DNA of 64,000 bases from Tequatrovirus NIC06P2, in the sequence record OZ035760.1. One strand, written 5' to 3'. The position numbers and the translations under genes are program-made. The notes beneath the pieces are model-generated. The model searched no databases and was not told the DNA's origin. It was given only the letters and a program-made list of their open reading frames with translations. Shown here piece after piece: positions 10,777 through 47,474 of this stretch (positions are counted from its first letter, which is position 1; every line of letters starts with the position of its first letter).

Positions 10777-11452
10777 ACGCAAAAGATACATAAAAACGAA
10801 TAGCTTCTAAGGCATTAATAACGTGTAAACAGAGGTAAAGAGACTTCATTAAAGCACGTTTAGCTTCGGCTTCTTGTTTAATAGCTCGGTTTAAACGAAA
10901 GTCGGCATCAGGAGATTCTTTAGCTAGTTCTACAAATTCTTTAGCATTTTCCCATTCACGGGTTTTAACCAAGACATCATCATAATAGCGACCGATAGAT
11001 TCAGCACGTTTCATGATAGCTTCATCTAATACAATCTCATCAAATACCTTCGATGGATCAGTATAAAGATTTCGCATGATATGAGTATATGAACGACTGT
11101 GAATAGTTTCACTAAAAGTCCACGTAGCAACCCATGTATCAAGACTTGGGTCTGAAATTAATGACATAAGTACAGCAGACGGTGCACGACCCTGAATGCT
11201 ATCTAGAAGTGATTGATACTTCAGGTTATTAGTAAAAATATCCTGCTGATATTGAGGAAGCTTATTAAATTGTGCAGCATCCATCATCAAGTTTACTTCT
11301 TCAGGACGCCAGAAAAATGATAAGGACTTCTCTGTAAGTTCTTCAAATACTCGATGCCGTTGAATATCATAACGCGCAATACCAAGACCTGAACCAAAAA
11401 ACATAGGTTCTTTTAAAACATCAACTGGATTTGTATTAAAAACTGTGCTCAT
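10777..11452 (-). CDS. nrdB: ribonucleotide reductase small subunit NrdB, exon 1
   Basis: Encodes the N-terminal half of RNR beta ending ...ALEAIRFYVSFA; di-iron/tyrosyl radical region is recognisable. Confidence 0.8.
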
Positions 11453-11503
11453 AAATTTTCCACTTAGTTAATAGTTGGTGACTCGTCCGTGAGTCAAATT
11501 ATA

Positions 11504-13768
11504 TCATAATTTACAGGATGAACAATCTTCAGCTTTTGGAGTTTCTATTTCATAATCATCAGTACCAGAACCATCGCGGGTATTATGATAATAGAAATTT
11601 TTTCCGCCAAAATACCAGAAATACAAAAGGTCATCAATCATTATTGACATTGGAACCTTTCCTTTTGGAAAAATCTGCGGGTCATAGTATGTATTCGCTG
11701 AAGCTGATTGACATACCCATTTCAGCATAATAGCTACCTGCGTAAGATAAGGTTTATTACCTTTCTTAGCTAATTTCCACGTATAATCATAGAGGTCTAT
11801 GTTATGTTCAATATTGGGCACGACTTGATTAAAGGAACCCTCTTTTGATTCTTTAACAGAGACTGGTCCACGTGGAGGCTCGATACCGTTTGTACTGTTA
11901 GAAACTTGGGAAGATGACTCACATGGCATAAGTGCTGATAATGTGCTATTACGGATGCCAAAGAGCTTAAGGTCTTCCCGCAACGCCGACCAGTCACAAA
12001 CGTATTTTGGAGCTGCGATTTGGTCAATCTTTTTATTGTACCAGTCGATAGGTAATTCGCCTCGAGACCAACGAGTGTCTGAATAATATTCGCAAGGTCC
12101 TTTTTCTTTGGCGAGCTTAATGGATGCTTTAATGAGTCCATACTGTAATCTCTCAAATAGTTCATGTGTTAAATCGTTAGCATCTTCATAAGAAGCAAAG
12201 TTACTTGCTAGCCAAGCTGCATAGTTGGTAACACCTACACCGAGGTTACGACGCTTTTTAGCTTTTTCTGCTTCAGGAACTGGATATCCTTGGTAATCCA
12301 ACAGATTATCAAGAGCACGAACTTGAACTTCTGCCAATTCATTAATTTTATCTTGGTCTTGCCAGTCAAAATTATCTAATACGAATGCAGAAAGAGTACA
12401 CAATCCAATTTCAGCATCAGGGCTATTCACATCATTTGTTGGAATAGCAATTTCACAACACAAGTTACTCTGACGAATAGGTGCCTTTTCACGAATAAAC
12501 GGAGTATAGTTATTCGTATTATCAATGAACTGTACATAAATCCTTGCTGTTCCTGATCGTTCAGTCATGAGCAATTCAAATAGTTCACGAGCTTTAATAC
12601 GCTTTTTACGAATATTAGGGTCTTTTTCTGCTGCTTCGTATAATTCACGGAAACGGTCTTGGTCTTTAAAATAAGAATAATAAAGCTCTCCACCCATTTC
12701 ATGTGGACTGAACAAAGTAATGTAATCGTTCTTTCCGAATCGTTCCATCATCAAATCATTCAGCTGAACACCATAATCCATATGACGAATGCGGTTTTCT
12801 TCTACGCCTTTGTTATTTTTCAAAACGAGAAGATTTTCAACTTCCAAATGCCAAATAGGATAATAAGCAGTAGCAGCGCCGCCACGAATTCCACCCTGTG
12901 AGCATGATTTAACAGCAGTCTGAAAATGTTTCCAAAAAGGAATAACACCAGTATGGCGTACTTCACCCATGCCAATCTTAGAACCTTCGGCACGAATCAT
13001 ACCAACGTTAATACCAATTCCAGCGCGTTTAGAGATATATTCAACAATTGAAGCGGAAGCCTTATTGATAGACTTCAATGAATCTCCTGCCTCAATAACA
13101 ACACATGAACTAAACTGCCGAGTCGGAGTACGGCAACCAGCCATAATAGGAGTTGGCAATGAAATCTGTCGAGTAGATACTGCTTCATAAAAACGAATAA
13201 CATGTTTTAATCTATCAACAGGTTCATCTTGATGCAATGCCATTCCAATAGTCATAAATGCAAACTGTGGAGTTTCATAAATTTGACCAGTGGTTTTATC
13301 TTTAACTAGATATTTTTCTTTTAATTGCATCGCCCCGGAATAAGTAAATTCCATATCCCGCTCGTGCTTAATTTTTGATTCTAAAAATGTAATTTCTTCT
13401 GCTGAATATTTTGACAATAATTCAGGGTCGTATTTACCTTCATTTACACAGTAAGAAATATGGTCAATAAATGAACGTGGTTCATACTGCCCATAAACAT
13501 GCTTACGAAGAGCAAACATTAAACAACGTGCAGCTACATATTGATAATCAGGCTCTTCAACCGAAATAGAATTCGCAGCGGCCTTAATGACAATAGTCTG
13601 AATATCATCAGTTGTCATTCCATCACGGAGATAAGATTTAATATTTTCATATAATTCATAAGGATCTACTGATGTTCCTTCAGCTGCCCAAGATAAAACT
13701 TTAATAATTTTTTGTGGGTCAAAGCTCTGAGAAACACCACTACTTTTGATAACATTAATTAATTGCAT
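11504..13768 (-). CDS. nrdA: ribonucleotide reductase large subunit (754 aa)
   Basis: Class Ia RNR alpha signatures (ATP cone, active-site Cys region NLCCEI, C-terminal CxxC...CSSC); T4 NrdA length. Confidence 0.95.
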   Translation of the reverse strand: MQLINVIKSSGVSQSFDPQKIIKVLSWAAEGTSVDPYELYENIKSYLRDGMTTDDIQTIVIKAAANSISVEEPDYQYVAARCLMFALRKHVYGQYEPRSFIDHISYCVNEGKYDPELLSKYSAEEITFLESKIKHERDMEFTYSGAMQLKEKYLVKDKTTGQIYETPQFAFMTIGMALHQDEPVDRLKHVIRFYEAVSTRQISLPTPIMAGCRTPTRQFSSCVVIEAGDSLKSINKASASIVEYISKRAGIGINVGMIRAEGSKIGMGEVRHTGVIPFWKHFQTAVKSCSQGGIRGGAATAYYPIWHLEVENLLVLKNNKGVEENRIRHMDYGVQLNDLMMERFGKNDYITLFSPHEMGGELYYSYFKDQDRFRELYEAAEKDPNIRKKRIKARELFELLMTERSGTARIYVQFIDNTNNYTPFIREKAPIRQSNLCCEIAIPTNDVNSPDAEIGLCTLSAFVLDNFDWQDQDKINELAEVQVRALDNLLDYQGYPVPEAEKAKKRRNLGVGVTNYAAWLASNFASYEDANDLTHELFERLQYGLIKASIKLAKEKGPCEYYSDTRWSRGELPIDWYNKKIDQIAAPKYVCDWSALREDLKLFGIRNSTLSALMPCESSSQVSNSTNGIEPPRGPVSVKESKEGSFNQVVPNIEHNIDLYDYTWKLAKKGNKPYLTQVAIMLKWVCQSASANTYYDPQIFPKGKVPMSIMIDDLLYFWYFGGKNFYYHNTRDGSGTDDYEIETPKAEDCSSCKL

Positions 13769-14302: not shown

Positions 14303-15159
14303 ATTGCCATTTTCCCTTTAATTGCTGGATGCGATTCATAATTTTCAAGGATAAAATCTTTCGGTTTCATGTATTCAGTTAACCAGTAAAGCTGTGTTTC
14401 GGTGTCACAATTTCCAAACTCTATAGGCCAGTCAATTTTAAGTTCGCACAGTTCTTTAGGCTCACGACGTAAAATTTCTTTACATTGCTCAGTATGATTC
14501 ATATAGATGTGAGTATTACCACCAGAAAATATCAAATCTCCTGGGATAAGATTACACATCTTAGCCACAATATGCGTCAAGGCAGCGTACGAGGCAATGT
14601 TGAATGGCAAGCCCAAGAAAACATCTACACTTCTTTGGTACCATTGTAAATCAAGATAACCATTACGCACATTAAACTGATAGAACATATGACAGGGCGG
14701 TAATGCCATTTGATTGATTTCAGCTGGATTCCATGCTGAAACGATTTGACGTCGATCAGTTGGTAATTTTTTAATACGATCAATAGTTTCAACTAATTGA
14801 TCCACACCACCGAAATCACGCCATTGTTTACCGTATATAGGACCAAGTTCACCACTATGATATCCTAGGTCTTTAGCCTGGTTTTCATAGTTATCGTCCC
14901 AAATAGTTTTACCTTGAATAAGACTACCATGAGTGCGAAGACGTAAATCATTAACATTGGTAGAACCGGAAATAAACCATAGAAGCTCAGCAATGCATGC
15001 ATTCCAGGCGAGCTTTTTAGTTGTTACTGCAGGAAAACCTTTGGTTAAATCCCAACGCAATTTAGTACCGAACAAAGCAATTGTTCCTGTGCCCGTTCGA
15101 TCATCGGTTTCATAGCCATTTTCAAAAATGTCTTTAATTAAATCTTGGTATTGTTTCAT
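14299..15159 (-). CDS. td: thymidylate synthase, uninterrupted (286 aa)
   Basis: Full-length TS with catalytic region PPCHMFYQF in a single ORF; no intron. Confidence 0.95.
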
Positions 15160-16407: not shown

Positions 16408-16650
16408 TTAAACAGACTTTTTCACAATTTTCCAATCAGCTTTAAACTGTTCAACGTCAGAATGGTAAATCCAGAATCCTGCGCTTTCTCCATCCTCATA
16501 AAGAGGGCATCCATCACATTCACCTTCCCATCCCATACCACGTAAAAGATGTTCAGCTTTTTCAACAAGTTCAGAATCTTTACCGATGATATTAAAATAC
16601 CATTTACCTCTAACTTCTGAATCTTTGATGCTTTGGCGTTGTAATCTCAT
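16408..16650 (-). CDS. hypothetical protein (80 aa)
   Basis: Complete ORF with early promoter/leader upstream. Confidence 0.5.
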   Translation of the reverse strand: MRLQRQSIKDSEVRGKWYFNIIGKDSELVEKAEHLLRGMGWEGECDGCPLYEDGESAGFWIYHSDVEQFKADWKIVKKSV

Positions 16651-16705
16651 TTTATTCTCCTTAGTTGATAGGGTAATAGTATCACACTACTACCCTGATG
16701 TAAAC
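16651..16705 (-). promoter_or_regulatory. early promoter and leader (GTTTAC...ATACTATTACCCTATCAACTAAGGAG)
   Basis: Conserved promoter/leader cassette repeated at other loci in this window. Confidence 0.5.
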
Positions 16706-17113: not shown

Positions 17114-17341
17114 TTATTGTTCAATCAGTCCCATGTAAAATTCTGCGTCTTCAGAATCCATGCCATCACAATATTCATTAGCCATAAAGCGGGTGAGGTC
17201 TTCAAGAGGACCTTCAATAACGATTTGAATACTCCAATACTTAGAATCTTGCACGCTTGTGATACTAAGTTCAGGATAACGATTACGAATAATCTCTTCA
17301 ATATATTCAAAATCAACGATGTCAATATCAACTTTAGCCAT
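17114..17341 (-). CDS. hypothetical acidic protein (75 aa)
   Basis: Complete ORF downstream of the gene 32 terminator and an early promoter. Confidence 0.5.
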
Positions 17342-17415
17342 ATTATTTTTCCCCTTTAATTATCAGCAGTATTGCCGATAGTTGTATAGTACCATGGAAG
17401 GACAAGGATGTAAAC
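17342..17415 (-). promoter_or_regulatory. early promoter and leader (GTTTAC ... GGTACTATACAACTATCGGCAAT)
   Basis: GTTTAC -35 with downstream conserved leader; follows the gene 32 terminator. Confidence 0.5.
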
Positions 17416-17440
17416 CGTTTTGTGAAAAAATTTTTGAAAT

Positions 17441-17465
17441 AAAAAAGGGGACCTCTAGGGTCCCC
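17441..17465 (-). terminator. intrinsic terminator downstream of gene 32
   Basis: ggggacc-ctag-aggtcccc stem-loop followed by T6 on the minus strand directly after the gene 32 stop. Confidence 0.8.
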
Positions 17466-18456: not shown

Positions 18457-18495
18457 TGGTCAGTGAGATAATTATAATCTATTTATAACAAGCAA

Positions 18496-25817: not shown

Positions 25818-26507
25818 ATGGCTGATTTAAAAGTAGGTTCAACAACTGGAGGCTCTGTCATTTGGCATCAAGGAAATTTTCCATTGAATCCAGCCGGTGA
25901 CGATGTACTCTATAAATCATTTAAAATATATTCAGAATATAACAAACCACAAGCTGCTGATAACGATTTCGTTTCTAAAGCTAATGGTGGCACAGATTCT
26001 CAAGGTTTCCAAAAAGAAGTAGAATTTAAAAAAGGTGTTAAGATTTCTGCAACGTTTTCTGGCGGTTCAAACCTGAATGGGTTATATTCTGGCAATGGAG
26101 ATGGAGCTTCCAGAGAAAAAGCTAACATGGATTTACGTTCATGGTACGGCATTGGTATTTGGAACTCATGCACAGGTGATGGGATCCAGGGACGCACAAT
26201 CTGGTTTAATGTCAGGCGTGGTACAGTTGAAACACTTGGCGATATTGTTTCGGGCAAACAAGTTATTTCTAATGCTTCAGGACCGACCGGCCCAGCACAC
26301 TTAACTCGCAAAGATTATGTTGATGGAGCAATAAATAATGTTACAGCAAATGCGAACTCTAGAGTGTTGCGTTCTGGTGACACTATGACAGGTAATTTAA
26401 CGGCGCCAAACTTTTTCTCGCAGAATCCCGCATCTCAACCTTCACATGTTCCACGATTTGACCAAATCGTAATTAAGGATTCTGTTCAAGATTTCGGCTA
26501 TTATTAA
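25818..26507 (+). CDS. 36: long tail fibre distal connector gp36 (229 aa)
   Basis: Position and size; shares the GDTM(T/S)GNLT motif with the gp37 N-terminal region. Confidence 0.9.
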
Positions 26508-26515
26508 GAGGACTT

Positions 26516-29500
26516 ATGGCTACTTTAAAACAAATACAATTTAAAAGAAGCAAAACCGCAGGTGCACGTCCTGCTGCTTCAGTATTAGCCGAAGGTGAAT
26601 TGGCTATAAACTTAAAAGATAGAACAATTTTTACTAAAGATGATTCAGGAAATATCATTGATTTAGGTATTGCTAAAGGCGGCCAGGTTGATGGTGATGT
26701 GACTATCAATGGTAAATTAACATTAAATGGCGCGTATGTTCAGACGCTGGCTGGTATTAATACTACGGGTGGTATTAATTCTGGGGCCGCTATAAGTGCA
26801 ACAACTTATTATGCTCGGTCTGGTTCTTTTTATGCTCGTGCTCCAGATGCCAATGCGAATACACATGTTTGGTTTGAAAATAACAATGGTATAGAACGTG
26901 GTGTGATTTGGGCTGTTCCGAACACTTCAGACCTAGGCTCGGTACGTATTCGAGCAAAAACCACAGGCGGTGTTTTCGCCGGCGAGTACAGTTTCCGCTC
27001 TGATGGCCGATTTGATGTTCCTGTAGCAGTTAAAATCGGCGGAGCAGCGATGCTAACCAAAGATGGCAACATTACCTCTGGTTCTATGTTTGGCGGTAAC
27101 CTTAACAACTATTTGACTTCTATTAAAAATGACATTGTTGCTGGTGATAATAAGAAAGTAAGTAAAACCGGTGACACGATGTCCGGCAACTTGACTATTA
27201 ACGCTAACTTAAAAGTCGAAAACTCTAATGGAACGTTTGTTGATTTAGGTTCAGAGAACTCTGATAAGTATAGCAGATTAACTCTTGCTCGTAAAATTGG
27301 CGATGGCGCTGGTGTAGCAATGCTTAAAGTTACTCCTGAAGGAAACGTGCAATTTGGTTATCAACCTACAGTTGCTACTCCATCTCCTACCAAGTATATT
27401 CTAATTAAACCTAACGGTCTTGAAGTAGAAGGTGATTTAGTTTTTAAGCAAACTTATCGTGGTGTTGAAGAAGCATTTGATATTACTGATCAGACTATTG
27501 ACCTTAATAGCCTTATTATTAGAGGATCAGATTTAGGTACTCGTAAGCTGTATAAATGCAGATCATCTGGAGGTGGTTCTAATATATTGAACAAACCTAC
27601 ATCTGACGGCAACTTTACTCTTGAAGTTCTGTCTTTACGCAAGGTTTCTGATACCGATTGGTCATGTAAGCAGACCTTTACTACAAAGAACAATAATGTT
27701 GTAGGCGTATATGTTCGCTACGGGCAAGGCGGCTCATGGTCTGCATGGCAAGAAGTTGTATCTGGCGTTCAGCCAATTAATTTAGGTGGTACTGGAGCAA
27801 CTTCTGCAGCTGCTGCCCGTAATAACCTTGGTGTTGGTGCAGGCCAAACTGTAACATTCGGTAATTTAGTTACCACCGATTTAACTGCAAACGGAAACGT
27901 TAGATTAGTTGGAAGACTGAACTTTGGTTCTAATTCTCAGTCGGCTGGTGTATTACGCGCCAACGAAGGTGGGGCTGTTGTTTTAAGTTCTGCAAGTGGT
28001 GCAAACATCCACATCAGAGCGGGCGGCGATACTTCTACTGGTGAAACTCGCTTTGAGCCAAATGGCAACGTTGTAGTTGGTGGAGCTATTACAACATCTC
28101 AGCGTATTACAGTTAATGCTGCCACCGATGCTATTGTTGTTAACGCTCCAACTCAAGCATCATCCAACTATATTCAGGGTCGTAAAGCTGGTGTCGCTAA
28201 ATGGTATGTCGGCATTGGCGATGATGGTGATGCAGTACGTCTACATAACAATGTATATTACCATGGTATTGGATTGAGCGCTGATACTGTCGATATTACC
28301 AAGCCTCTTAAAGTCGGAAATGCCAAACTAGGAACTGATGGTAATATCACCGGTGGTTCTGGCAATTTTTCTAACTTGAACACAACATTAAACCGTAAAG
28401 TTAATGTTGGTACATGGTCAGGTGTTGATAAAGTAGTAGGTTGGTACTGGTACAAATTTGCTACTGTAACAATGCCACAATCTGCATCTACCGCGCGTTT
28501 CAAAATTATCGGCGGGAATGGTTATAATGCTAATGCTCCTGAACAAGCATCTGTAAGTGAAATTGTTCTTAGAACTGGTAATAATAATCCTAAATCTATT
28601 AATGCGGTGCTGTGGTCTAGCACTAGTACCGGCCCGTCAAACATTGCTACAGTGAATACATCTGGCGATAATTATGATGTATATGTATACATGGGCAATT
28701 TTGCCCAATCTTTATTGGTTGAATATGATGCTACAGATACTCGTTATATTTCGGTAATCGGTCTTAATGGTGCATCTCAATCACCGGTAGAAGAGCTTCC
28801 TGTGAATAATGTTAAAGGTCGTGTTTTTAAACTTCTTAATAACAGCTCGGGTGTTTTTGATGCAGATAGTTCTAATATTTCTACAAACGCAACTTTTGTG
28901 GCAAATACTCCTTTAGGATTCCGTCACAAATCTAACGGCGACGAAAGTGGCTCTGCCGCTACTCTGCTTTATAATGATGGTACTACGTTCCACATATTAT
29001 TAACAGATAAAAATACCAATACTGATAGAACTAAAGCCTCTGGTTCTTATAATAGCTTGAGACCTTTTTCTATCGATATCGCTTCAGGTAAAGTAACTAT
29101 TTCACACTCTATGAGCGTTTTTGGGGTATCAGAGTTTTATACTGGCCTTAACATCAAAAATAATGGAATTAACTTTGATAAGTCTGGTGCTAACCCGAGA
29201 AACATGAGAATATTCCATGCCGGAGATGCCACACGTGGTAACCGTATTGAAATTGCTGATGATTCAAGTTATTTGGTTTATTTCCAACGTTTACCGGGCG
29301 GCGCTAACCAGTGTACATTTAACTCTGCTGCTCTTTCTGGTATAACACAGACTAACTCTTTTGGTATTAATACAACAAATGCATGGGGTGGTAACTCAAT
29401 TACAATAGGTGATAACGATACTGGTTTTAGACAAGTAGGCGATGGGCTTTTAGAAGCGTGGGCGAACAATGTTAAAGTTGTTAGATTCACCTCAGGTGAA

Positions 29501-29845
29501 GTTTATTCCGAGAAAAACGTCAACGCTCCTAATGTTTACATTCGTTCTGATGTTCGCTTGAAATCTAATTTCAAACCTATTAAAAATGCGCTCGAAAGGG
29601 TTGAGCAACTTGATGGTTTAATCTATGACAAAGCTGAATATATAGGCGGTGAACCTGCTCAAACAGAAGCGGGTATTATAGCTCAAACGTTGCAAGACGT
29701 TTTACCAGAAGCAGTCCGTGAATCAGAAGACAGCAAGGGTAATAAAATACTCACTGTTTCTTCTCAAGCCCAGATTGCTCTTCTGGTTGAAGCTGTGAAA
29801 ACACTTTCTTCTCGTGTAAAAGAACTTGAATCTAAACTTATGTAA
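26516..29845 (+). CDS. 37: long tail fibre distal subunit gp37 with C-terminal intramolecular chaperone domain (1109 aa)
   Basis: Position; the C-terminal 98 aa (from DVRLKSNF...) show the peptidase S74 autochaperone motif (...NAL..V..L.G..Y...E.......TE.G.IAQ....VLPEAV). Confidence 0.9.
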
Positions 29846-29846
29846 A

Positions 29847-29864
29847 AGAGGGCTTCGGCCCTCT
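29847..29864 (+). other. stable UUCG-loop hairpin between genes 37 and 38
   Basis: agagggc-uucg-gcccucu directly after the gene 37 stop; not followed by a clean U-run. Confidence 0.45.
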
Positions 29865-29875
29865 AAGGATTTTTA

Positions 29876-30658
29876 ATGGCAATTGTAGGTGTTCCTGGCT
29901 GGATTGGTGAATCTGCCGTGAATGAAACTGGACAACGTTGGATGGATGCTGCAATGAGAGCAGTTCGTGTTTCAGTTCCCGGTTGGATGAGCTCAATGGC
30001 TGGACAATCTAAAGAAATTATTCACACGCTTGGAGCAGACCATAACTTCAATGGTCAATGGTTCCGAGATAGGTGTTTTGAGGCAGGTAGTACACCTATA
30101 GTGTTTAATATTACAGGTGATTTAGTATCATATTCTAAAGATGTTCCTTTATTCTTCATGTATGGAGATACACCGAATGAATATGTTCAGTTGAATATAC
30201 ACGGCGTAACGATGTATGGACGTGGCGGTAATGGCGGTAGCAATAGTCCTGGCTCAGCTGGAGGTCATTGTATTCAAAATGATATTGGTGGGAGACTAAG
30301 AATTAATAATGGTGGAGCTATTGCTGGCGGCGGCGGTGGCGGTGGCGGCGGATATTATTCTCCTTTTTCACAAATGAGATTGACCTTTGGCGGCGGTGGC
30401 GGTCGTCCTTTTGGTGCGCCAGGCGGATCTATTGATATGCAATCAGGCGCGACTGGTGGTACTATTTCTGCACCTGGCTCAGGATCCGTGAATGGTATCT
30501 ATAATGGCGGAAACGGTGGTGAAGTAGGTTCCGCGGGAGGTAGATGCAATATTCGCGGTCAAGGATCTGAATATAATGGCGGCGCTGCTGGTTATGCTGT
30601 CATAGGGTCCGCTCCAACGTGGCAAAATGTTGGAGCAATATATGGTCCAAGAGTATAA
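29876..30658 (+). CDS. 38: gp38 tail-fibre tip adhesin, T2-type (260 aa; glycine-rich motifs)
   Basis: Multiple poly-Gly motifs ([39 protein letters not shown]) separated by variable segments; follows gene 37. Confidence 0.85.
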
Positions 30659-30688
30659 TGTGAATAAATACCCTTAAAAGGAGGGTCT

Positions 30689-33437: not shown

Positions 33438-34073
33438 TCACAGTTCAGATGCTACAATGATTACAGCTTCAATGTTTTCTGCCGAGCGTTTAATGTCAAG
33501 ATACACATTACCGTTTTTAGCGATTTTACATGACATTCCGATATCAGTAAATTTCTGAATATGATGTTCCATCATTTTGTATCCAAAAATTCGCATATTT
33601 CCATTGTTGTTAATTTCAAAATTACGAATTCCGTGAGTACGTTTTTCTAAAATAGCGAGATAGTTACTACGATAAGTTTCAACCTTTTTAAGAACAAATC
33701 CATTTTCATCTAGCAGTTTTAACATGAGGTCTTTATCTTCTTCCATATCGGAAGTAATCTCGCGAGCTTTACGAGTTGCTCGTTTTTTCAGCAGTTCCGG
33801 AGCATTTTCTTGTGCATATAAAGTTGCTGCGTTTGAAATAATATCCTGAGCTTCACCAGTAATGATTAATCCATCACCAGATTTCTCCACCAGGCCTTTT
33901 TTAATCAATACCCCAATATTACTATTAACTACTGCGTTACCTAAATCTGGATGCACCTCACGAACTTCTGCAGCTGTAATGAAATCTTTCTTAGCAATAG
34001 TAATTAAAATCGCAGCAGTTTTTTCATTCAGAACATCGTTAGAAGCTTTGATGATGTAAGTTACTTTAGACAT
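33438..34073 (-). CDS. motA: MotA middle-transcription activator (211 aa)
   Basis: Matches T4 MotA length and sequence. Confidence 0.9.
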   Translation of the reverse strand: MSKVTYIIKASNDVLNEKTAAILITIAKKDFITAAEVREVHPDLGNAVVNSNIGVLIKKGLVEKSGDGLIITGEAQDIISNAATLYAQENAPELLKKRATRKAREITSDMEEDKDLMLKLLDENGFVLKKVETYRSNYLAILEKRTHGIRNFEINNNGNMRIFGYKMMEHHIQKFTDIGMSCKIAKNGNVYLDIKRSAENIEAVIIVASEL

Positions 34074-34144
34074 TTTCTAATCTCCGTAATTCTGTATCAG
34101 TAGTTGATAGTTGTATAGTACCACAGTATGCTTTGGTTGTAAAC
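34074..34144 (-). promoter_or_regulatory. early promoter and leader upstream of motA
   Basis: GTTTAC -35 with GGTACTATACAACTATCAACTAC leader; near-duplicate of the cassette at 17342-17415. Confidence 0.5.
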
Positions 34145-34168
34145 CGTTTTGTGAAAAAAATTTAAAAT

Positions 34169-34194
34169 AAAAAAGGGAGAGCCTCGGCTCTCCC
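34169..34194 (-). terminator. intrinsic terminator
   Basis: gggagagcc/ggctctccc stem followed by T-run on the minus strand. Confidence 0.7.
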
Positions 34195-34199
34195 TAAAA

Positions 34200-36916: not shown

Positions 36917-37135
36917 TCATTTTACACCATTCCAAATTGTTTCAACTACGGATTTTAAACCATTTTGATGAATATCAATTCCGACTACTGTCATCAAATA
37001 GATTCCAACTACAACTGAACCTAAGGCAAAAATCAGCATGAAAATGAATAAAGCCGGAAAAATATTATCGAAAAACCATTCAATAAATGTAAAAGCACTG
37101 CGTTTACGCTTCATATTTTCCTCACATAAATCCAA
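36917..37135 (-). CDS. small membrane protein (72 aa)
   Basis: Two predicted hydrophobic helices. Confidence 0.45.
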   Translation of the reverse strand: MDLCEENMKRKRSAFTFIEWFFDNIFPALFIFMLIFALGSVVVGIYLMTVVGIDIHQNGLKSVVETIWNGVK

Positions 37136-37235
37136 AGTAAACGTTTAATACATCAATCATTAAAACGATTGGGAATATACTCAAAACTAATAATATTATA
37201 ACTACATTCCATATAGCTTTAATAATCTTTTTCAT
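37122..37235 (-). CDS. small membrane peptide (37 aa, MKKIIKAIWNVVIILLVLSIF...)
   Basis: Starts directly after the conserved early promoter/leader; the longer 82-aa track ORF reads through the promoter. Confidence 0.4.
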   Translation of the reverse strand: MKKIIKAIWNVVIILLVLSIFPIVLMIDVLNVYFGFM

Positions 37236-37293
37236 TTTCTGTTCCTCCGTAGTTGATAGGGTAATAATACCACAGAGGAACAGTCTTGTAAAC
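37236..37293 (-). promoter_or_regulatory. early promoter and leader (GTTTAC...GGTATTATTACCCTATCAACTACGGAGGAAC)
   Basis: Conserved cassette shared with 16651-16705 and 37743-37799. Confidence 0.5.
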
Positions 37294-37478: not shown

Positions 37479-37742
37479 TCATAGCTCAATCTCAATGATT
37501 TCAAGATTATTTTCTTTAATAGCTTTCTTTAAATCATCGTAAATAAGAACTTCCCAAGAATTGTTTAAATCACCATTCAACAAACGCTCTTGTTGCAATT
37601 TATCAGTAAGATATGGTTGATCTGATTCATATTTAGACAATCCCAATGAAATAAATGATGTTGCATCATCAATTTCAGAATATTGTACATAAACAAATTC
37701 ACCTGTGATTTTATGTTTAACATAAAAGAATTTAAATTTCAT
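37479..37742 (-). CDS. hypothetical protein (87 aa)
   Basis: Complete ORF with promoter/leader cassette upstream. Confidence 0.5.
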   Translation of the reverse strand: MKFKFFYVKHKITGEFVYVQYSEIDDATSFISLGLSKYESDQPYLTDKLQQERLLNGDLNNSWEVLIYDDLKKAIKENNLEIIEIEL

Positions 37743-37799
37743 TTTTGTTCCTCCGTAGTTGATAGGGTAATAGTACCACGGTCCTTGTGGTATGTAAAC
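37743..37799 (-). promoter_or_regulatory. early promoter and leader (GTTTAC...GGTACTATTACCCTATCAACTACGGAGGAAC)
   Basis: GTTTAC -35, 17-nt spacer, conserved leader with GGAGG Shine-Dalgarno. Confidence 0.55.
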
Positions 37800-46916: not shown

Positions 46917-47417
46917 TTATCTCATTTCAATAAAATCTACGAGTTCAGCATGCGATTTGCGGAACATTACTTGGTGCCCGCCAATGATAACTTGGTCATC
47001 TGGCACTTCGTATACAGCAAGATAAAATCCTTTAGAAGCTAATTCTTCACGCTCTTCTCGTGTGAACCATCTCATCATATCATATTCACTAGCGAAAGCA
47101 AAATGATAAAGACCTATAAACCATCCGGGAATATGATATTCTACTCCAACATAATCTTTCTTGAACTTAGTATTAATTACTATATTAGCGTTTTTAACTA
47201 ATAGTTTATCTTCGTGTGGTAAAGGAATTCTTTTATTATTATCGCTATGATGCATAAAATTAGGTCTGTCATAACCTACGTGTAATAGCCACTCTTCGCT
47301 CCATGAATCTATTATACTCCTATACGGCGTTATTTGAACACAAAGATTTCGACGTATTGTTATAGCATCTTCATAATCAAGAATACTAAACGATGATTCA
47401 ACACGATAAATTTTCAT
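46917..47417 (-). CDS. hypothetical protein (166 aa from MKIYRVESSF)
   Basis: Track ORF start at 47456 lies inside the promoter/leader; the shorter start follows the leader. Confidence 0.5.
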   Translation of the reverse strand: MKIYRVESSFSILDYEDAITIRRNLCVQITPYRSIIDSWSEEWLLHVGYDRPNFMHHSDNNKRIPLPHEDKLLVKNANIVINTKFKKDYVGVEYHIPGWFIGLYHFAFASEYDMMRWFTREEREELASKGFYLAVYEVPDDQVIIGGHQVMFRKSHAELVDFIEMR

Positions 47418-47474
47418 TTTATTATCCTCAGTAGCTATGGTGTTATAATACCACAACTAACCGAGGAAGTAAAC
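47418..47474 (-). promoter_or_regulatory. early promoter and leader
   Basis: GTTTAC (47469-47474) with leader GGTATTATAACACCATAGCTACTGAGGATAAT. Confidence 0.5.

Follow-up and report, generated by a model that had tools for sequence, protein, structure and literature searches.

A repeated promoter/leader box in Tequatrovirus NIC06P2 as a probable set of T4-class early promoter cassettes

In the 64,000-nt stretch of Tequatrovirus NIC06P2 DNA analyzed here (record OZ035760.1; the whole stretch is referred to as the window), a conserved box recurs on the minus strand, directly before several early genes. These boxes are very probably early promoters of the T4 class joined to minimal leaders, that is, cassettes of the known PeSL (promoter-early stem-loop) type, whose copies are alike through paralogy and exchange. 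The box is real but ordinary: it is a unit of promoter, short leader and ribosome-binding site that is swapped between small genes and has already been described, and such extra conservation is already known from T4 early promoter cassettes (PeSLs) and their recombination history.

The box and its sites

Hundreds of Tequatrovirus genomes are 95-98% identical to the window, which is collinear with T4 positions 129132-168903, followed by 1-26206; the names of downstream genes are taken from the T4 annotation. An early promoter/leader box reused before small ORFs had been proposed at 16651-16705, 37236-37293 and 37743-37799, with variants at 17342-17415, 34074-34144 and 47418-47474. At the three main places the sequences are present as described, on the minus strand, each interval running from the base that adjoins the ATG up to the -35 element. 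The -10 hexamer of the original prediction is found at two of them, but the third, at 37264-37269, reads TATTAT and not TACTAT. The variants prove to be true relatives, namely the early promoters of frd.3, motA and motB.2. Reuse before small ORFs is borne out by T4-class early promoters located 5' of frd.1, ndd.4, an 87-aa ORF and frd.3, and the box also precedes the larger genes motA and motB.2. The cassettes, with the ORFs of the three main sites, are as follows (SD, Shine-Dalgarno sequence):

16651..16705, minus strand: frd.1 cassette, type A; -35 GTTTAC at 16700-16705; TGn and -10 TACTAT at 16676-16681; +1 predicted at 16669 by homology to the promoter features of X75802; SD GGAGAATAAAA at 16650-16660, a perfect RegB/S1 consensus; ATG at 16648-16650
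16408..16650, minus strand: frd.1 ORF, 80 aa, phrog_1254, function unknown, served by the cassette at 16705
17342..17465, minus strand: frd.3 cassette, type B variant; -35 at 17410-17415; -10 at 17386-17391; UP-like TTTTTTCACAAAACG; terminator-like intrinsic hairpin at 17447-17465; ATG at 17339-17341, with 44 nt from -10 to ATG
34074..34195, minus strand: motA cassette, type B; -35 at 34139-34144; -10 at 34115-34120; predicted +1 at 34108; terminator-like hairpin at 34174-34195; GGAGATTAGAA (RegB site) at 34075-34085; ATG at 34071-34073
37236..37293, minus strand: ndd.4 cassette, type A; -35 at 37288-37293; -10 TATTAT at 37264-37269; predicted +1 at 37257; GGAGGAACAGA at 37238-37248; ATG at 37233-37235
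37269-37283 and 37239-37253, minus strand: complementary arms of the ndd.4 cassette, in the spacer/extended -10 and in the leader/SD, respectively
37122..37235, minus strand: ndd.4 ORF, 37 aa, phrog_3098, a predicted inner-membrane peptide in the T4 annotation
37743..37799, minus strand: cassette of the 87-aa ORF, type A leader; -35 at 37794-37799; -10 TACTAT at 37770-37775; predicted +1 at 37763; GGAGGAACAAA at 37744-37754; ATG at 37740-37742
37479..37742, minus strand: 87-aa ORF, phrog_2390, function unknown
47418..47474, minus strand: motB.2 cassette; -35 at 47469-47474; -10 TATTAT at 47445-47450; GGATAATAAAA at 47417-47427; ATG at 47415-47417; spacer complementary to the leader/SD

A PHROGs scan placed the products of frd.1, frd.3 (75 aa), ndd.4 and the 87-aa ORF, four of four, in families without known function. 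The 87-aa ORF is found in most Tequatrovirus records and is missing from T4 except for an apparent 8-codon remnant.

The motif search and alignment that had been suggested as a check place the box far above chance. With Y permitted in the -10, the pattern GTTTAC-N17-RTAYTATTACCCTATCAACTAMGGAGRA has three exact matches in the whole window, each of them on the minus strand (16655-16705, 37243-37293 and 37749-37799), and none in 100 dinucleotide-preserving shuffles. Relaxed patterns yield 13-14 matches, more than any of 100 shuffles (means of 1.4-5.4, largest values of 6-11), and all 14 matches of the GTTTAC-anchored relaxed search lie on the minus, that is, coding strand. The probability that the repeats reflect a chance likeness of AT-rich intergenic DNA is practically nil: the genome is AT-rich, and a short motif such as CTATCAACTA is expected about five times by chance if one mismatch is allowed, but the shuffles, the strand bias and the position before the ATG, at a distance of approximately 25-45 nt in 19 of 19 curated promoters, refute such a reading.

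Relation to the T4 early promoter class

T4 early promoters contain UP, -35, TGn and -10 elements plus “additional regions of consensus” (PMC2988021; PMC1524935), and the consensus established by Liebig & Rueger (1989), Wilkens & Rueger and Miller et al. (2003) is summarized in the same two papers. Sites with GTTTAC-N17/18-TAnnnT and, behind it, an SD and an ATG number 19 in the window, on the minus strand, and 35 in T4, all of them on the early-gene strand; this set includes the promoters of asiA, motA, motB, alc, rnh and regB. The distance between the -10 and the ATG is usually 25-31 nt among the 19 window and 35 T4 promoters, and 25-44 nt in the six box sites. As in the T4 class, GTTTAC occupies positions -36 to -31 (in all six box sites and all 19 window promoters), a TGn motif adjoins TAnnnT (the extended -10 reads TG(G/A)TA(C/T)TAT in six of six box sites), and an A-rich UP element lies at -40 to -44, where AAAAAGT(A/T), CATAAACTA or CACAAAACG is found directly 5' of GTTTAC in every box site. 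Information content calculated from the 35 T4 promoters makes the UP, -35, TGTGG and -10 elements evident, with an A at -40 in 33 of the 35. A generic sigma-70 scan of the regions around frd.1, frd.3, motA, ndd.4 and the 87-aa ORF recovered each of these five box sites as TTTACA-17-TAYTAT with TG. In location, too, the sites agree with the T4 class, being on the early-gene strand and immediately before early genes, motA and asiA among them; several are orthologues of T4 promoters annotated in GenBank, and in the record of phage fPS-90 a “predicted early promoter” is annotated at the equivalent of 37767-37799. No essential difference from the class was encountered, although the sub-family picked out by the original prediction, TACTAT-TACCC/ACAAC-TATCAACTAC, is more alike than the class consensus demands.

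In the GenBank entry X75802, which covers the T4 ndd region, both ndd promoter features end at the A of CTATCAAC. Transcription should by homology start at the A that closes CTA in CTATCAAC, 7 nt past the -10, which in the window corresponds to 16669, 37257 and 37763. With such a start, TACCCT, 6 nt of the supposed leader box, would not be transcribed, and the real 5' UTR would measure about 20 nt; it is predicted to consist of AUCAACUACGGAGGAACAGAAA-AUG, most of which is Shine-Dalgarno sequence. The conserved TACCCT-ATCAACTAC would then span the predicted start site, comprising 6 nt of untranscribed discriminator and 9 nt that are transcribed. The consensus that follows the -10 in the 35 T4 promoters, A..aaCT-A(+1)-TCAAcTA, is modest (0.3-0.66 bit per position), and its genome-wide core around the start, C-T-A+1-T-C-A-A, which would contribute less to the likeness of the copies than their history does, probably reflects preferences for the start site and the initial transcript.

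Taken together, the elements suggest that each copy would act as a strong sigma-70 promoter, built from an A/T-rich UP element, GTTTAC, the TGn of an extended -10 and TAnnnT, and that an unstructured 5' UTR of about 20 nt with a GGAG(G) SD, an A-rich stretch and the ATG would allow a small early gene to be expressed strongly and at once. Two other classes of element were considered and dropped by inspection: a middle or late promoter, since neither a MotA box (TGCTT) nor TATAAATA is present at the box sites, and a sigma-dependent pause element, since no -10-like element lies 3' of the +1.

Exchange between cassettes

PeSLs have been described as composites of an AT-rich region, a -35, a -10, an SD and an ATG, with a stem-loop (Arbiol et al. 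2010, PMC2839356; Comeau et al. 2014, PMC4122927). Their crossovers have been mapped to the segment that separates the -10 from the SD/ATG, and the exchange at ndd.4/.5 between T4 and PST is a published example (PMC2839356; PMC4122927), and Arbiol et al. reported stem-loops “overlapping the -10 box” (PMC2839356). The window cassettes resemble PeSLs in several respects: the composite of AT-rich tract, -35, -10, SD and ATG is present in six of six box sites, some copies have a predicted stem-loop either upstream of the promoter (frd.3, motA) or over the -10 (frd.1, ndd.4, motB.2), the cassettes adjoin small ORFs without known function, and close relatives differ by indels or replacements with junctions in the segment from the -10 to the SD/ATG. 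The ndd.4/.5 locus itself is among the published examples. On the other hand, type-A copies are devoid of an upstream intrinsic terminator and the copy at 37799 has no significant stem-loop (z -0.22), and thus the full PeSL anatomy is not found in every copy.

The near-identity of the copies probably stems mainly from their history: the cassettes are paralogues that go on trading segments, by homologous recombination or gene conversion, and the breakpoints lie in the stretch from the -10 to the SD/ATG. The copies at 37293 and 37799, 506 bp apart, have 27 identical nucleotides in common (34 with one mismatch), and recombination between these neighbouring cassettes would be predicted to give a 506-bp minicircle. 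The upstream half of the 37799 copy is orthologous to the T4 ndd.6 promoter, while a leader of the ndd.4 type follows its -10, which identifies this copy as a recombinant; it looks like the product of a recent conversion from the ndd.4 cassette. The window version, with a type-A leader on the 87-aa ORF, is rare, since the best match reaches at least 99% in only 4 of 823 records. The exact 23-mer was located at only five loci in IMG/VR, too few for a survey, and an annotated phage collection was used instead.

Comparisons of whole loci point to the same mobility. Among the nine phages compared, the denB-proximal promoter (spacer ATACCACAAGGACYGTGG) is followed by four different leaders and three different downstream ORFs, and the 87-aa ORF is preceded by three different leaders; phage SG1 encodes an identical N-terminus of the 87-aa ORF behind a different leader. 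In T4, promoters that are not orthologous nevertheless have spacers in common, elements for which no recognition function is known, as is the case of imm.1, nrdC.8 and ndd.4 (AAGACYGTTCYTCC...) and of frd.3, which equals nrdC.10. Between identical flanks, 10 of the 18 positions of the window frd.3 spacer (17392-17409) are unlike T4 frd.3, and the spacer resembles that of T4 e.8, at 70.7 kb; as judged from sequence, the patch was exchanged between cassettes that lie far apart. Four arrangements of the frd.2-frd.1 interval are found among phages, and the T4 frd.1 locus carries, between promoter and frd.1, a 22-codon ORF that has no counterpart in the window, the junction lying between two CTAA-GGAG repeats.

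Altogether, 3 of the 19 window cassettes have a block replaced or deleted in relation to T4, with a leader deletion at 16705, a spacer replacement at 17415 and a junction at the -10 at 37799. In the remaining 16, the leader diverges from T4 by 1.6-2.1%, as against 2.8% for the spacer and 5.2% for the UP region; the leader is thus not detectably more constrained than the spacer, the counts being too small either way.

The 22-codon ORF of T4 (approximately 146015-146083, minus strand) is unannotated, encodes the hydrophobic MFAPYIMAAVMLVCLYLLIKAC and has its own SD; its place in the window corresponds to 16651-16669. It is kept in phages ESCO58 and Sa45lw and missing in the window and in O157 typing phage 7. 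At T4 167000-167025, an 8-codon mini-ORF, MKIAEIEL, overlaps the ndd.6 start, and its end matches the C-terminus of the 87-aa ORF (...EIIEIEL), of which it looks like a remnant; the leader of this mini-ORF and its initial codons (MKIA) agree with the imm.1 cassette of T4. A 68-aa ORF (MFTTAELKRAK...) is driven by the denB-proximal promoter in RB14 and T2, RB14 also retaining the 87-aa ORF behind it, and at least four gene contents are found in the denB-ndd.5 interval across Tequatrovirus.

The leader and the putative RegB/S1 site

The leader had been suggested to be a regulatory RNA element, for instance an RNase site. This suggestion holds for the GGAG(G/A)A part, which coincides with the published target of RegB/S1, but not for the conserved TACCCT-ATCAACTAC part: the leader has a minimum free energy (MFE) of 0, no Rfam family is matched, its divergence from T4 is not measurably below that of the spacer, and its likeness among copies follows their history of recombination. 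The RNase-site idea is consequently right for the last 11 nt or so of the box, where it coincides with established knowledge.

The target consensus of RegB/S1 is GGAGRAYARAA, with GGAGAAUAAAA as the T4 optimum (PMC1702504; PMC3014915). The target must be single-stranded (PMC1702504; PMC3014915), a G at position 5 has been reported to be helpful, and nothing specific is required 5' of the GGAG (PMC1702504). In T4, the motA RNA is a good RegB substrate (PMC1702504), the GGAU of motB.2 is cut, being one of only two cleaved GGAU sites, and the nrdC.8 site GGAGGAACACA, nearly the same as in the type-A copies, is “moderately cleaved”. The window leaders resemble such sites in that GGAG (frd.1, ndd.4, the 87-aa ORF and motA) or GGAT, GGAU in the RNA (motB.2), serves as the SD of an early gene and is followed by an A-rich 7-mer, which in the three type-A leaders, folded from the predicted +1, is predicted to be single-stranded. 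Mismatches to GGAGRAYARAA number 0 at frd.1, which matches GGAGAAUAAAA exactly, 1 at motA and at motB.2, whose T4 orthologues are cleaved experimentally, 2 at the 87-aa ORF and 3 at ndd.4; among the six box sites scored, the frd.3 cassette has no GGA(G/U) RegB motif. The type-A copies (GGAGGAACA...) deviate from the consensus at positions 7-8, plus position 10 in ndd.4, and the closest tested relative of their SDs GGAGGAACAGA and GGAGGAACAAA, which carry these 2-3 deviations, is the T4 nrdC.8 site, cleaved only moderately.

By homology to T4, RegB cleavage of the window leaders is inferred: the GGAG with its A-rich 11-mer would be a RegB target, aided by ribosomal protein S1, and RegB would shut off the early mRNAs a few minutes later, as expected from the published consensus and from T4 motA, motB.2 and nrdC.8. 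The regB gene is nearly universal in these phages, with matches in 1137 phage records, of which 500 reach at least 95% identity, and its T4 locus (62.3-62.7 kb) lies outside the window. Such a site spans only the last 11 nt or so of the box, leaving the conserved TACCCTATCAACTAC unexplained; since RegB needs nothing 5' of the GGAG, it does not account for TACCCT-ATCAACTAC.

Two further RNA candidates were rejected. A known structured leader was discarded because the Rfam scan of the whole window returned 0 family matches, and an autonomous fold of the leader was discarded because the three type-A leaders, folded from the predicted +1, have an MFE of 0 kcal/mol and are predicted to be single-stranded.

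Alternative explanations for the conserved leader

If the transcribed segment (AUCAACUAC plus the SD) were a dedicated cis-regulatory operator for a repressor such as RegA, or for another factor, conservation past the -10 would be expected. It is true that CTATCAAC(T) follows the -10 in T4 promoters with about eight unrelated spacers, that positions +1 to +8 carry 0.25-0.66 bit each in the 35 promoters, and that the segment is A-rich beside the AUG, as are RegA sites; a motif common to about eight unrelated spacer families could have selection on the leader as its source, besides recombination. An operator is nonetheless improbable, given that the leader forms no structure and belongs to no Rfam family, that RegB/S1 makes no demands 5' of the GGAG, that the 87-aa ORF functions with three different leaders among phages, and that the leader divergence of 1.6-2.1% is, on small counts, not clearly below the spacer value. 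By inspection, there is also no likeness to the RegA SELEX consensus AAAAUUGUUAUGUAA beyond A-richness.

A somewhat better case, although still a doubtful one, can be made for the leader being kept as the 3' arm of a promoter-spanning hairpin, which would silence read-through RNA, hide the RegB site and thus serve as a translational insulator. When RNA that includes the promoter is folded, a 15-bp hairpin results at ndd.4 (-23.2 kcal/mol, z -5.25) and a comparable one at motB.2 (-23.7 kcal/mol, z -5.9), both covering the SD; in read-through transcripts of these two genes, the spacer would pair with the leader/SD and fold the SD into the hairpin. The complementarity of the spacer is moreover much greater with its own leader than with those of other promoters, with cognate and non-cognate means of -11.95 and -7.38 kcal/mol in T4 and of -10.67 and -7.05 kcal/mol in the window, and none of 2000 permutations was as extreme as the real pairing, be it in T4 or in the window. 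The comparison took in all early promoters of the window and of T4, in the window for example those at 786, 4239, 7564, 46369, 47474 and 58769. Across eight sequences the ndd.4 stem is 97.5% paired, its variable positions still pairing by way of one-sided G-C/G-U changes; compensatory double changes are, however, absent, and the shuffle control has no discriminating power. The complementarity is also far from general: some 40% of the early promoters in the window and T4 show it, often with the SD included in the 3' arm, and among the box sites it is strong at ndd.4 and motB.2 only, with a moderate 12-bp stem over the -10 that leaves the SD uncovered at frd.1, weak and non-significant complementarity at frd.3, and no stem at the 87-aa ORF or motA cassettes. 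In addition, such stems have been read as potential terminators since 1986, when the repeats flanking the -10 of the ipIII, ipII, denV and regB promoters were so annotated in X04567, with the 3' arm on the ribosome-binding site of denV and regB, and the PeSL papers take them for terminators or attenuators (PMC2839356). They explain the match between spacer and leader within a copy, not the identity between copies.

A parallel does exist in the SD-sequestering hairpins of T4 genes e, soc, 49 and I-TevI, in which translation depends on the promoter used (PMC3014915). As in these genes, the ndd.4 and motB.2 promoters lie within the hairpin, the SD is in the 3' arm, and RNA that starts internally lacks the 5' arm. 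The T4 cases, in contrast, involve late promoters and were shown experimentally, whereas the box is an early promoter with a predicted effect, and most of its copies have no such stem. That the complementarity between spacer/extended -10 and leader/SD is itself a selected translational insulator is rather unlikely. If it were, RNA read through from upstream would be untranslatable and RegB-resistant at the gene in question, translation, followed by inactivation through RegB, would be confined to RNA from its own promoter, and pairing with the conserved GUGGU of the extended -10 would be part of the reason why the conserved ACUAC next to the SD, on its 5' side, is kept. So far such stems have been read only as potential terminators. 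The insulator idea is not needed to explain the box; T4-class cassettes that are related by paralogy and exchange remain the preferred explanation.

Other differences from T4 and significance of the cassettes

Outside the cassettes, gaps in the megablast alignment of the window with T4 were noted at 14574-14612, 18459-18495 and 11452-11508, and represent mobile-element differences. The window is devoid of the td intron with I-TevI, of segG between genes 32 and 59, and of the nrdB.1/mobE segment; an Rfam scan detected no group I intron in the window, which is consistent with the absence of the td intron. The distal tail-fibre region (genes 36-38; window positions 25990-30664) has almost no megablast match to T4, a mismatch that fits the known swapping of adhesin modules in T-even phages.

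Early promoters, their extended consensus, RegB sites within GGAG SDs and the shuffling of PeSLs are all in the T4 literature already, and the box is therefore of little consequence as a discovery. The window nevertheless offers a clean illustration of PeSLs at work, in which 3 of 19 cassettes have undergone block exchange at their boundaries in relation to T4 and one promoter is combined with four leaders in nine phages. The cassettes are also of help in annotation, as pointers to where very small early ORFs really begin, among them unannotated ones such as the 22-codon ORF of T4.
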